From positions 1-16,525 of the IMG/VR virus record IMGVR_UViG_2778261085_000008: a stretch of DNA of 16,525 bases; one strand, written 5' to 3'. Positions 3,001 to 6,000 of the stretch are shown in pieces; positions within the stretch are counted from its first letter, which is position 1, and every line of letters begins with the position of its first letter. The DNA comes from a virus (Duplodnaviria; Heunggongvirae; Uroviricota; Caudoviricetes). The position numbers are program-made.

Positions 3001-6000
3001 TGGATTTGATTAATTGCGGTTGCGTCTAAGTTCTGAGACATAATAAGTCCTCACTATATAAAGATATTCAGTGATGAGATAAATAATCAGTTAATTAAGA
3101 ACGATATTAATGACCTGCTGCGCGAAGTTTTCCGTCAGGTTCACCGGCAAGAGTCAGTAATTGTCCCTGGTCTTCCTGCAGAATAGTCAGGCGACCACCG
3201 CGATTGACATACATCGGCGTTTCGGTGGTGTCTTCTTCAGAAATTTTCCCGCGGTTAGTCGGGCGAACATATGAGAGTTTGTGTTTGATTTTCACACGGT
3301 TCTCATCAAACGGTTCGATTTCTAGGTTGAGCGAGACCTTACCTTTGGTTTTCGTGTTCATCACACCGGAAGCGACTTCACTGAGAACAGCGCCGATTTT
3401 GGTTTCAAATACGCCGCCGTCCAGCTCCCCGATAAATGCCTGCACATCAGTACTGCGTTCGCTAGCCATTTTGCTGCTCCCCATCATATCGACCCTGCAA
3501 GGTCGGTTGGTTTCTCCACAAAACAGAGAAGAACGCCTGCGGTGACTGCCGCCCGGATGGATTGGGTTATGAGCCCGTCGTCCGGTGATGCTCTTCTCTG
3601 TTTTGTAAAAAGAGCGGTACCAGCCGGAAGCAAGTGTACAAACTGGTACCGCCAAAGCAGTGGCTGTTGTGGTGGGGTTGTCACTCAGGCGTATGGTCAA
3701 CCTGACAATCCGGTGTCCTCAACGGGGAAAGAGTAACCCCGCCATACTTACCGCCGCGCCATTTCGCGGATTACCACAACGCTGAGAGCACTTAGCCAGT
3801 TACGGCACCACACTTTGTCGCGGTTCCATAAATGCCCTCATCGTTGCACCCTGGTCTCTTCCCTGGCGTCAAACCGAATCGCCACGCTGGTTAGGCGTCT
3901 TATCAGCATCATCATTGACTTGCACATTCCGGCTACCTGGTTTGTTTGCCCGAGCAAGGAGTGGATTGTCCCCTTTAACGTCCCCAGACCGCTAACGACG
4001 CATGTGCCATACGCCGTGTTACAATAAAATGTTCGGTATTAGTTACCAAAGAGACGATTACTCTTATGGTTGAATGTAATACCCCTGTTGAATATTTTCT
4101 TGCGTACTATTTGTTTTTCCTATATAACGAATTGGTTGTTTTATTTACATAATAAGAAGTTTTCTTAAATAAGTTTACATTGTTTTATCTTGCTATTTTT
4201 CAAAATTCAAGAACAATGAATTGTCGCTATCGGTAATTATTCTTTATGAAATTTTATAAATAACTCCCTGCTTTTGAGTTTTGTACGCAGTGTTTTTAGT
4301 TGTCGAGGACATAATGGATAATCAAAATACTCCTGTTTTTGATGTATGTGGTTGGTACTGTGTGCCAGTTAAAGATCATAATTCAGTTATAGTTCAACTG
4401 TCCTGCAAACAACCACCATTTGAATCTGATAAAATTATCGAAAGTCCAATATATTCTTTTCCCATAAAAGAAATACCAAATCTCATAAAAACATTACAAA
4501 ACATTTATGAAGAAAATAATTGATTATAAATCCAGTTCAAAAGTGAAGCGTCCATTTGGGCGCTTTTTTATTTACGAATCATTCCGGTCTTCGTATGCCC
4601 CGGACGGCTACTTCGTGGGCGTCCTGCCTGTTCGATATCTTATGTAGGTACATTATGTATCTGTAGGGTACATTGTCAAGTATAAAAAAACCTGCCGAAG
4701 CAGGTTCATAGACATTGATCAGGCTTTAATTTTGTATCTTCTTGGTTTTCCTGAGAAAATAACTGTACCAATGATAGAGCAATTACCGTTTATCTTAATG
4801 TAAGGCTCAGGCCAGTTGGGGTTTAATGCTTTGAGATAACGCTGTGTCCCGTCTTCTATCAACCTTTTGAAGGTGGTTTCACCTGTATCGTGCATCAATG
4901 CAATAACGTCATCGCCGTGGCAGGCTGGTACTTCTGGATCGACAAAAATCATGTCTCCCGGACGGTACTCATCAATCATTGAATCACCAATCACCCTCAA
5001 TATATAAGTCATTTCGCCACAGGGTACAGGGCAGGGATACGTTTCTGTTGTGCTCAAATCAACCTCAGAATAGCCAACTTCTTTCCATGCTCCGGCCTGT
5101 ACCCATGATATGACAGGGACTAACGTTATTTTTTTATTAGTGATTGAAACATCAGGTTTTTTTGTGATGTTCGTTGTCTGGTGTTCTTGATCAAGCCATC
5201 CGACAGGCAGGTCGAAACATTTTTCGATGTGCCGTGCCATGCTGTCACCGATATTTTTAGTAGCGCCATCCCCCATAAACCTGCTGGTCTGGGTAGGCTC
5301 GCGATCAATCATGGTGGCAAAGGATGAATTTCCGCCAACACCATCTCTCAGTTTTCTGGCGTTAGACCGCCGGATGTCATGGATTGTTTTCATAACGAAA
5401 TTAAAACCTTTGTACCGATAAGGTACAAGTATCTTGAAGGTTCATCTCAATCATGTAATATGTATACTGGAGGTACATGTTGTATGAAAGCGTATTGGGA
5501 CTCTTTAACCAAAGAACAGCAGGGCGAGTTAGCCGGAAAAGTTTGCTCAACACCTGGCTACTTACGGCTGGTTTTCAATGGCTATAAAAAAGCCAGCTTT
5601 GGACTGGCTAAAAAACTTGAGCAATGCACATCAGGTGCAATTACGAAATCTGACTTAAGACCGGATATCTATCCGAAAGATTAGCAGAAAATCTTCAATT
5701 TTTAACCACAGGAACAGGAGGTAAGCCGTGGGTAAGCATCACTGGAAAGTGGAAAAACAACCTGACTGGTATGTGAAAGCTGTCAGAAAAACTATCGCGG
5801 CATTGCCAGGTGGTTACGCTGAAGCTGCTGAGTGGCTGGATGTAACAGAGAACGCTTTATTCAACCGCCTTCGTGCCGATGGTGATCAGTTTTTTCCGTT
5901 GGGATGGGCAATGGTTTTACAGCGTGCGGCTAGTACTCATCACATTGCGGATGCTGTCGCACAGTCTGCTGGTGGGGTGTTTGTATCACTTCCTGAAATT

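Follow-up and report, generated by a model that had tools for sequence, protein, structure and literature searches.

We propose that positions 3473-4024 of the window (the whole stretch of DNA analysed, 16,525 nucleotides of the Caudoviricetes record IMGVR_UViG_2778261085_000008 in IMG/VR) are, on the minus strand, probably part of a long untranslated leader of the early-left (pL) operon in an N-less prophage of the SfV/ST64B/cdtI type. The full leader is likely to begin at a predicted pL at about 4650 and appears to be a chain of RNA domains, each folding and exchangeable independently. The reading that we favor is an attenuator of the DicF-locus type in a leader that also generates small RNA. 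The gene order at the locus is cI, terminator, promoter, leader, first gene, with the following parts:

4707-4688: cI terminator, with pL directly after it
4652-4679, minus strand: predicted pL-type early leftward promoter, TTGACA-16-CATAAT, agreeing with the consensus at 11 of 12 positions
4567-4642, minus strand: module D, a promoter-proximal RNA of about 75 nt with two helices and an invariant 26-nt strand (CM R2, 90.6 bits)
4530-4566, minus strand: hairpin AAGCGCCCAAAUGGACGCUU and degenerate boxA (CACUUUUGAAC), read from the window sequence
3847-4024, minus strand: modC core, a conserved structured RNA (CM R1, 141.3 bits)
3784-3839, minus strand: P5 hairpin domain (GAGGGCA...UGCUCUC), an optional appendage of modC
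3666-3780, minus strand: domain B, a four-way junction closed by GUUGUGGU/ACCACAAC, the conserved element directly 5′ of dicF
3607-3665, minus strand: DicF-position module, defined by an inverted repeat and a U-run
3665-3654, minus strand: short variable segment of that module
3653-3614, minus strand: its terminator hairpin GGCGGUACCAG/CUGGUACCGC, with 10-nt arms
3613-3607, minus strand: its U-run, UCUUUUU
3518-3606, minus strand: module A, a long helix of 15-18 bp around a three-way junction, defined by an inverted repeat and alignment A6
3505-3490, minus strand: small hairpin CGACC-UUGCAG-GGUCG
3482-3477, minus strand: Shine-Dalgarno sequence (SD) GGGGAG
3469-3467, minus strand: ATG of the first left-operon gene (3107-3469, phrog_204)

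A sequence-only reading of this DNA had described an ORF-free, strongly structured head of the leftward early operon, lacking an N gene where lambda has N and nutL. Both descriptions were borne out. The stretch 3473-4024 is conserved in many phages without a conserved ORF, no N-like ORF was found, and the RNA fold of the region gave z = -4.73 on the minus strand versus -2.77 on the plus strand. The covariation in homologs that had been suggested as a check was also detected, as the alignments of modC, of domain B, and of module A with the terminator all show compensatory substitutions backing the helices. The minus strand is taken as the sense strand because the invariant G-U pairs of modC would be A-C if read on the other strand. 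In the cdtI, Ayreon, and Stx2c phages, the region is 97-99% identical, with homology stopping at about 4024. Scanning the whole leader against Rfam at gathering and permissive thresholds gave zero matches in 3300-4700; a control showed that Rfam 15 holds no put family, so that this silence is uninformative about put. A literature search with sequence strings of modC, the terminator, module A, and D retrieved no paper, though they might be described in King 2011, on ten put-like sequences, or in Faubladier & Bouche 1994, on sequences resembling dicF.

The 3′ half of the leader (P5, B, the variable segment, and the terminator hairpin) is, in our judgment, most likely a unit of the same kind as the Qin dicBF "long untranslated region containing dicF". 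Domain B shares 93.5% identity with the stretch between ydfC and dicF in K-12 Qin, where it lies 25 nt upstream of the Rfam DicF match; with the P1 ban leader, in its "dicF-like region", the identity is about 75%. B occurs in 4737 of 5426 E. coli genomes. Its consensus structure comprises 31 pairs, 5 of them with compensatory change, and covariation support in both B and A is modest. The single-sequence fold of B (z = -0.08) was uninformative, and comparative analysis alone resolved the domain. P5 retains its closing helix while its sequence changes in other loci (GAGAGCAUU/AGUGCUCUC and GAGAGCGCACU/GGAGUGCGCU). P5 is missing from P1, but a P5-type domain also lies upstream of B in K-12, where the order P5, B, small RNA, closed domain is the same as in the window. 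In phiV10, the position of B, between modC-P5 and a terminator of the same kind, is taken by a real tRNA-Arg. Neither ARAGORN nor the Rfam tRNA model recognized a tRNA in the 115 nt of domain B, and B and the phiV10 tRNA-Arg have only the four-way-junction topology and the genomic slot in common. The string CACAACA at 3670-3664 had raised the idea of a GcvB sponge, AgvB (anti-GcvB); it was dropped, as the string is the 3′ strand of the B closing helix and AgvB genes are located at PR′ (PMC4104026).

Every copy of B is followed by a variable segment, a hairpin, and a U-run. In the window, the hairpin has perfect 10-nt arms at 3614-3623 and 3643-3652, 19 nt apart, and is the 10-bp stem-loop pointed out before. 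A G+C-rich stem of 10-11 bp is followed by UCUUUUU, with structure conserved over sequence, as is found for intrinsic terminators; a simple terminator scan missed 3653-3607 only because of the 19-nt loop. The stem before the U-run is replaced wholesale in ST64B, phiNP, and Flotzy (in ST64B by GUCGGCGUC/GACGCCGAC), while CUUUUUAC is kept. Since stems are swapped and the U-run is kept, we interpret the 10-bp stem as an intrinsic terminator. The module also has a DicF-type location, in a pL-type prophage operon, directly downstream of B, and ending in a predicted Rho-independent terminator, and its 5′ hairpin arm has UUUGGCGGUAyCAGUUU in common with DicF. The DicF model (Rfam RF00039) did not match the window, not even when a slice of 161 nt was scanned at E<=10, while the K-12 DicF control scored 76.7 bits. 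As the element fails this model and lacks the DicF 5′ part, any RNA released from it would not be DicF itself. The earlier suggestion of a small RNA thus appears right in kind, with the stem and U-run forming the predicted terminator of a DicF-position small-RNA module. DicF has a 5′ end made by RNase E and a 3′ end made by termination or RNase III, binds Hfq, and represses ftsZ (PMC5069750).

Directly downstream, module A is built on two 15-nt arms (3518-3532 and 3592-3606, 100% complementary, 59 nt apart). This is the 15-bp stem with a 59-nt loop noted from the sequence about 50 nt before the first gene; the ATG at 3469, preceded by its SD, indeed starts about 49 nt after the stem. The core of module A is nearly invariant (CCGGR-CGAC-GGG-CUCAUAA-CCC-AAUCCA-YCCGG), and in alignment A6, compensatory changes turn A-U into C-G and G-C into A-U pairs, GCGG/CCGC is replaced by GCUG/CAGC, and R-Y covariation is seen. 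We consider module A to be a putative processing-type hairpin.

Under the favored reading of an attenuating, small RNA-generating leader, polymerase from the predicted pL would transcribe D, the insert described below, modC, P5, and B, and would then meet the intrinsic terminator at 3653-3607. By analogy with DicF, a short terminator-bearing RNA could be released from stopped transcripts or, after cleavage within the 15-18 bp module A helix, from those that read through; an endonucleolytic cut immediately 3′ of B, the tRNA-like junction, would set its 5′ end. Read-through transcripts would carry the 3′ half of helix A, the small hairpin, and a free SD, and would allow the left-operon genes to be expressed. 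Because only read-through transcripts would express these genes, the terminator would act as an attenuator setting the ratio of noncoding RNA to early-left mRNA. The weakest step of the proposal is that D and modC may condition the elongation complex, or shield the untranslated RNA from Rho, such that enough polymerase passes.

An AT-rich moron of 540 nt, with a convergent ORF and a bidirectional hairpin, separates pL and D from modC in this prophage. Because of this insert, pL transcripts may reach modC inefficiently. A weak local promoter candidate near modC agrees with the consensus at 8 of 12 positions and could conceivably serve modC as an alternative to pL.

modC is an RNA of about 165 nt with at least five helices and strong covariation, and it has no match in Rfam. 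It consists of stem I, P2, a 3-bp closing helix of the 3′ domain, the P3 hairpin (loop UCACCA), the P4 hairpin (loop GAAGAGA), and the invariant GGUAGCCGGAAUGUGCAAG; the window copy has an A-A mismatch in P4. In alignment A3, 98.4% of cells are paired, compared with 29-46% in slid controls, and 9 pairs (55 cells) show compensatory change. modC is present in at least 120 viral contigs, in P1 (in the trnI-ban spacer), phiV10, and Stx2c phages, and in about 20 Enterobacterales genera; the well-studied P1 genome thus contains an unannotated conserved structured RNA. It adjoins the 3′ end of a tRNA in P1 and the 5′ end of a tRNA in phiV10, and in close relatives it is promoter-proximal. At 81 of 113 unique modC loci, a hairpin of the terminator type described above lies downstream, mostly of the form GGCGG..CCGCC-CUUUUUACA.

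Module D lies outside the flagged stretch yet belongs to the same leader. In the window, it occupies about +5 to +80 of pL, and the same promoter and operator sequence is found 3′ of cI in SfV and many IMG/VR loci. At least 120 viral contigs carry D; it follows many different strong promoters at a distance of 25-35 nt, and it matched neither Rfam nor the literature. An alignment of 28 sequences has 97.1% of cells paired and compensatory change in 8 of 10 pairs, a result that 0 of 500 shuffles reached; as for B, comparative analysis alone resolved D, its single-sequence fold (z = -0.82) being uninformative. In many related phages, a homologous hairpin follows D and is itself followed by a perfect boxA GCUCUUUAACAAUCUGG, as in an untranslated rrn-type leader (UGCUCUUUAACAA after a hairpin). 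In the window, the boxA has diverged to CACUUUUGAAC, and the hairpin at 4530-4566 doubles as the terminator of a plus-strand moron ORF (4314-4523).

Plausible promoter-proximal candidates for antitermination are modC (3847-4024) and module D (4567-4642), both outside 3480-3700. Tentatively, modC and/or D may be cis-acting antiterminator RNAs that replace N and nut, either binding polymerase as put does or working like an rrn leader via Nus factors. On this possible but doubtful account, they would carry polymerase through Rho sites in the untranslated leader and past two terminators, the DicF-type one and another, at about 2200-2175, that follows the yfdQ-like gene; such terminators exist downstream. 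Both RNAs are structured and highly conserved, have invariant single-stranded segments, and lie 10-55 nt after strong early promoters that adjoin cI-type repressors of many immunity types. Phages with the same pL differ in whether D or modC comes after it, and no N-like ORF follows. D is succeeded by a hairpin and a perfect rrn boxA in many phages, and mEp460, where modC comes directly after pL, belongs, judging by its name, to a collection of Nus-dependent phages. As HK022 put does, D in the window and modC in close relatives lie just downstream of the early promoter of a phage without N, and short colinear blocks (ACGGCG..CGUCG..AGCG..CGGxAAUGxUGC) are held in common with putL. However, CM R1, CM R2, and an nhmmer profile of the modC 5′ half found no match in the HK022 region with putL and putR, i.e., no statistical similarity by CM or HMM. 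The put arrangement of two stems, an unpaired G35, and a 5′ strand pairing into the stem I loop was not recovered either; the critical junction G is not conserved, the modC junction base being U, C, or A. Further, modC is single-copy, and no rightward counterpart was found in the window, where the boxA is degenerate. In P1, modC comes only after the B-associated terminator and can have no effect on it, and the cassette of epsilon15-like phages ends in two terminators. A CCGGAAUG motif common to modC and D was considered as a put-like polymerase-binding motif and rejected: in D, it stems from a covarying C-G pair that takes a lineage-specific U-A form, and the window holds only 3 copies versus 0.57 expected.

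For lambdoid phages without N, among them SfV, ST64B, cdtI, and the Stx2c phages with their clinical importance, it is, to our knowledge, not established how polymerase passes through the early operons; the put RNAs of the HK022 type are the only understood case. modC (about 165 nt) and D (about 75 nt) could perhaps be two undescribed classes of promoter-proximal cis RNA that make E. coli polymerase resist intrinsic and Rho-dependent termination, in a put-like manner or with Nus factors and an rrn-type boxA, although we rate this below even chances. If true, they would replace N/nut in many temperate enterobacterial phages (SfV, ST64B, cdtI, Stx2c phages, and mEp460), and the same antitermination would work in the P1 ban operon and in epsilon15-like phages. 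The leader yields two widespread and sharply defined RNA motifs for testing, and disruptive and compensatory mutants can be designed directly, as the helices are already mapped by covariation.

The stretch from modC (with or without P5) to the terminator might instead be an autonomous noncoding RNA gene cassette, with tRNA-type processing at the tRNA or B; its products would act in trans, e.g., as ligands or sponges of a conserved host factor, and its location within a pL leader would be incidental. The order promoter, modC, P5, tRNA or B, hairpin, and U-run recurs in lambdoid, P1, and epsilon15-like genomes, modC abuts tRNA ends on either side (3′ in P1, 5′ in phiV10), and the invariant loops suggest a conserved ligand. 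Several loci, however, have a ribosome-binding site and a gene about 20-100 nt after modC without a terminator (ban in P1, and L065), as is typical of a 5′ UTR element, and we regard the cassette as rather unlikely.

Much less probable is the model with which the sequence-only reading had started, in which the 10-bp stem-loop, a boxA-like CGCTCTTTTTAC, and the 15-bp stem within 3480-3700 form a nut- or put-like site of processive antitermination. All three features exist, N is absent, and the site lies in the pL leader. But the boxA-like element, on the minus strand at 3616-3605, did not hold up: its CGCTCTT is CGTCCTT in SfV, CGACCTT in ST64B, and CACCTTT in Flotzy, and the U-run alone is kept. 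The first stem behaves like a terminator, its sequence being swapped before a retained U-run, and the site, separated from pL by about 1 kb and four other RNA modules, is unlike putL, which is promoter-proximal (PMC9378689). A lambda-type nut site combines a conserved CGCUCUUUA-like boxA with a boxB hairpin and an N protein; here the string is unconserved and no N-like ORF was found. Nor is there any likeness to put, as the CM and HMM models of the leader modules miss HK022 putL and putR.

Hardly credible is a coding function of ORFs 3542-3736 (plus strand), 3484-3684 (minus strand), and 3815-4027 (plus strand), although they match PHROGs 3651 and 33599 and are covered by hypothetical proteins in some records. 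Mechanical calling yields ORFs of 41-70 aa in the region, but they match only PHROGs of unknown function and nothing in Pfam. Homologous phage records annotate them inconsistently or not at all: near-identical phages differ, and 12 Stx2c records annotate nothing. A coding frame conserved in homologs, which would have spoken against a leader RNA, was looked for and not found: copies of the best-sampled module fall in all three length classes modulo 3 through indels, no frame is open across all diverged copies (the first frame analysis was not register-anchored and is indicative only), and the substitutions compensate RNA helices. This suggests that at least two PHROG families may rest on miscalled ORFs over these RNAs.

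Compared with known systems, HK022 putL and putR are alike in being structured RNA just downstream of an early promoter in an N-less lambdoid phage, and the lower five pairs of stem I (CGGCG/CGUCG) are identical in put and modC, which also have a few short colinear blocks in common. However, put is a 70-nt RNA with two stems that suppresses terminators independently of factors, an activity blocked by rpoC zinc-binding-domain mutations, whereas modC has about 165 nt and at least five helices and D folds differently; put forms a leftward and rightward pair, unlike the RNAs here, and its G35 is not conserved in modC. The lambda nutL/N system and the rrn boxB-boxA-boxC leader occupy the same location, and relatives have a hairpin and then a perfect GCUCUUUAACAA right after D. 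They differ in that the window has no N-like ORF, the boxA-like string of 3480-3700 is unconserved, and the boxA after D is degenerate.

The Qin dicBF untranslated region with DicF in K-12 and the "dicF-like region" of the P1 ban leader are alike in their pL-type operon position. Qin further has B (93.5% identity) directly 5′ of the small RNA, a P5-type domain before it, the UUUGGCGGUAyCAGUUU of the terminator hairpin, and a long closed helix after the terminator. It differs in that the window lacks the DicF 5′ part (UUUCUGGUGACG) and has another hairpin loop, with modC upstream and module A downstream, both of which are missing from Qin. Small RNAs linked to tRNAs are the 3′ external transcribed spacer RNAs. 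They resemble the present arrangement in that a tRNA (phiV10) or the tRNA-like junction B is followed by a short RNA with an intrinsic terminator; B of the window, in contrast, has 115 nt and is unrecognized by tRNA models, and its processing is a prediction. DicF thus appears to be one of a family of RNAs with variable 5′ ends that sit on a conserved tRNA-like junction, with a real tRNA filling that slot in some phages.

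The window is an E. coli temperate prophage of the SfV/ST64B/cdtI/mEp460 type, in which Cro-like and CII-like genes lie to the right of a cI-like repressor gene. The features of the repressor region and of the early leftward leader, together with Q, are as follows.

4719-5393, minus strand: cI-like S24 repressor
4707-4688: cI terminator, immediately before a strong predicted promoter
4679-4652, minus: predicted pL promoter (TTGACA-16-CATAAT), directly past the cI terminator
4642-4567, minus: RNA module D, right after pL
4545-4566: bidirectional hairpin of an inserted moron, trailed by a boxA in relatives
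4314-4523, plus: moron ORF, 69 aa
4024-3847, minus: RNA module modC
3839-3784, minus: P5 hairpin domain, optional, trailing modC in many copies
3780-3666, minus: domain B
3653-3605, minus: a 10-bp stem plus 'boxA' in the sequence-only reading, here the terminator hairpin
3606-3518, minus: module A (formerly the 15-bp stem), from the last base of the terminator U-run to 49 nt before the ATG
3107-3469, minus: first leftward gene (phrog_204, unknown function)
12794-13177: Q antiterminator

The pL promoter and operator are also found past cI in SfV and many viral contigs, and a DUF2303/YfdQ-like gene is next after the first leftward gene. Between the YfdQ-like gene and the next gene of the left operon we observed a terminator-like hairpin, AAAUGCCCC-UGC-GGGGGCAUUU (2175-2205, minus); the annotation of phage Ayreon lists it as a terminator. 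Elsewhere in the window, tandem tRNA-Met(cat) and tRNA-Arg(tct) genes lie downstream of the Q region (15116-15270, plus). Two tandem isrK + C4 antisense-RNA pairs (6636-6824 and 7258-7446, plus; Rfam, 59-84 bits) sit within the long ORFs 6276-7112 and 7105-8049, and the Pfam Phage_ASH matches of these ORFs coincide exactly with them. Either these stretches are dual-use sequence, or the Ash family consists partly of translated RNA genes.

The feature flagged at 3480-4020 is real and richer than first described. Both perfect inverted repeats are present where they had been reported, with 15-nt arms at 3518-3532/3592-3606 (59 nt apart) and 10-nt arms at 3614-3623/3643-3652 (19 nt apart). The region also lacks a credible ORF, as had been claimed: mechanical ORFs within 3473-4030 (41-70 aa) had no Pfam match and matched only PHROGs of unknown function, and near-identical phage records carry differing small ORFs over the region, or none. 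ORFs 3484-3684 (minus) and 3542-3736 (plus), which overlie the RNA leader and match PHROG 33599 and 3651 (unknown function), are spurious, and these two families probably consist of miscalled ORFs. Likewise, no N-like ORF was found between pL and the first leftward gene, in agreement with the earlier description of the operon head. Over positions 3473-4024, cdtI, Ayreon, PhiR40_1, and a dozen Stx2c phages match the window at 97-99% identity; homology ends at about 4024. Folding was more stable for the minus strand (z = -4.73) than for the plus strand (z = -2.77). Sensitive BLAST divided 3473-4030 into pieces with distinct distributions, which were analyzed separately and all on the minus strand, the direction of pL.

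3473-3655/3675: SfV, SfII, SfIV, ST64B, phiNP
3658-3780: PPompW-type phages
3774-4017: phiV10, TL-2011b
3853-4030: P1, P7, D6, RCS47, SJ46

Judged by these matches, the region is modular.

An invariant 18-mer of modC, GGTAGCCGGAATGTGCAA, is present in at least 120 IMG/VR contigs, and 105 unique 400-nt extracts were obtained from those listed; with a second pattern, the full-length element was recovered from 22 genome contigs, whose sources include Kosakonia, Phytobacter, Citrobacter, Klebsiella, Erwinia, Enterobacter, and Kluyvera. In a 28-sequence alignment (≤93% identity), a five-helix model comprising stem I, P2, a 3-bp closing helix, and the P3 (loop UCACCA) and P4 (loop GAAGAGA) hairpins gave pairing in 98.4% of cells; with slid partners the figure was 29-46%. 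Compensatory changes occurred at nine pairs (55 cells), values reached by 0 of 500 shuffles. Read on the minus strand, several of the invariant pairs are G-U, which establishes this strand as the functional one. Copy lengths differ by every residue modulo 3, and no frame is open in every copy. The covariance model of modC, R1, found a single copy in the window (141 bits), and Rfam 15, a check proposed with the sequence-only reading, gave no match to modC.

Usually, modC lies 10-55 nt past a strong promoter that closely follows a cI-type repressor gene; exceptions are epsilon15-like phages (leftward unit, portal to terminase) and P1, where it follows a tRNA, occupying the unannotated gap from tRNA-Ile (trnI) to ban on the transcribed strand of the ban operon. 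In the extracted P1 locus L003 (P1 68510-73694), full-length, unannotated modC and a B-type domain with terminator lie at 2495-2679 and 4780-5000. One viral contig (L022) carries two modC copies on the same strand, 650 nt apart (3997-4160 and 4804-4965). A full-length modC (163.6 bits; L148, 1151-1312) is on a contig labeled as a Bacillota MAG, which is probably a mis-binned enterobacterial phage.

Module D, a strongly covarying element of about 75 nt, is present in at least 120 viral contigs. It follows many strong promoters, unrelated to one another, at a distance of 25-35 nt. Its two helices surround an invariant 26-nt strand and are swapped wholesale (GCGAA/UUCGC vs. CCACC/GGUGG; CCGGU/ACCGG, CCUGG/CCAGG, CCGAC/GUCGG); 97.1% of cells are paired, and compensatory change is seen at 8 of 10 pairs, values that 0 of 500 shuffles reached. 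Its covariance model, R2, matched the window, SfV, ST64B, phiNP, and Flotzy, and found no D in Ayreon and mEp460, where a promoter of this kind leads directly into modC. Neither Rfam nor the literature gave a match. A hairpin and then a perfect rrn-type boxA, GCUCUUUAACAAUCUGG, come after D in many phages, and no N-like ORF was found downstream in those phages. The window copy of this boxA is degenerate, and D and modC are separated by an inserted AT-rich moron (4030-4566), which carries a terminator and a plus-strand ORF that lacks Pfam and PHROG matches. In loci of the L348 type, a remnant of modC, truncated to its 5' part, closely precedes D.

Of 5426 complete E. coli genomes, 4737 contain domain B. 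The K-12 copy (93.5% identity) is part of the Qin prophage, in the ydfC-dicB interval, and ends 25 nt before the Rfam match to DicF, a small RNA of Qin; the second P1 match is also B-type and is annotated as a "dicF-like region" just downstream of Pban. The consensus forms a four-way junction with GUUGUGGY/RCCACAAC as its closing helix; it has 31 pairs, five of them with compensatory changes, and a freely covarying central hairpin. In all 67 unique copies a short variable segment comes next, and then a hairpin and a U-run. In Qin-type loci this unit is DicF itself; elsewhere it is one of several other variants. In phiV10, where modC also occupies an unannotated gap, a genuine tRNA-Arg directly next on the same strand takes the B slot, followed by the same hairpin type and CUUUUUACA. 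This tRNA-Arg(tct) (extracted locus L004, 2428-2504, minus) is unannotated and abuts modC-P5, and two consecutive terminators precede gene p03. In the P1 ban operon, the B-type domain and a strong intrinsic terminator lie about 200 nt past Pban, upstream of all operon tRNAs and genes.

The 10-bp stem and the adjoining "boxA" were aligned among the window, SfV, ST64B, phiNP, Flotzy, and mEp460. The stems are entirely different in ST64B (GUCGGCGUC/GACGCCGAC) and Flotzy, CUUUUUAC always follows, and the boxA-like bases vary (CGTCCTT, CGACCTT, CACCTTT). Replaced stems, a retained CUUUUUAC, and lost boxA-like bases are the signature of an intrinsic terminator rather than of boxA. Among 113 unique modC loci, 81 carry such a terminator within about 800 nt downstream, and in most the spacing is constant. 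The region shares UUUGGCGGUAyCAGUUU with DicF and fails the DicF model, the DicF 5' part being absent. The long helix of module A is kept, with a few compensatory changes. The module A interior is near invariant (CCGGR-CGAC-GGG-CUCAUAA-CCC-AAUCCA-YCCGG), and one of its side hairpins reads either GCGG/CCGC or, after a switch, GCUG/CAGC.

A leader of the DicF-locus type is the best-supported mechanism. The intrinsic terminator would attenuate leader transcription, the terminator module could also yield a small RNA from the tRNA-like junction, and a processing or stabilizing hairpin would come next, in front of the first gene. Qin has a comparable long closed helix (UUUGUGAUG/CAUCACAAA) after the DicF terminator, where RNase III is reported to cleave read-through dicBF transcripts to give a 72-nt DicF (PMC5069750); by analogy, we infer that helix A is a processing site.

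Apparently, modC and D are undescribed conserved promoter-proximal RNAs, which could act by antitermination in cis or as processed trans-acting RNAs. An argument against simple antitermination by modC is that in P1 the strong B-associated terminator sits upstream of modC. As a lead, the name of mEp460 places it in the Kameyama collection of Nus-dependent coliphages.

Membership in the put family of HK022 antiterminator RNAs, a likeness raised by the sequence-only reading, fails: with putL and putR placed via published residue numbering, they were not detected by R1, by R2, or by an nhmmer profile, the essential put junction G is not conserved in modC, and the architectures of modC and D differ from that of put. 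The lower five pairs of stem I are identical in put and modC, which also have a few short colinear blocks in common. What remains of the resemblance to put is the genomic role, that of an element close to the promoter in a phage that lacks N.
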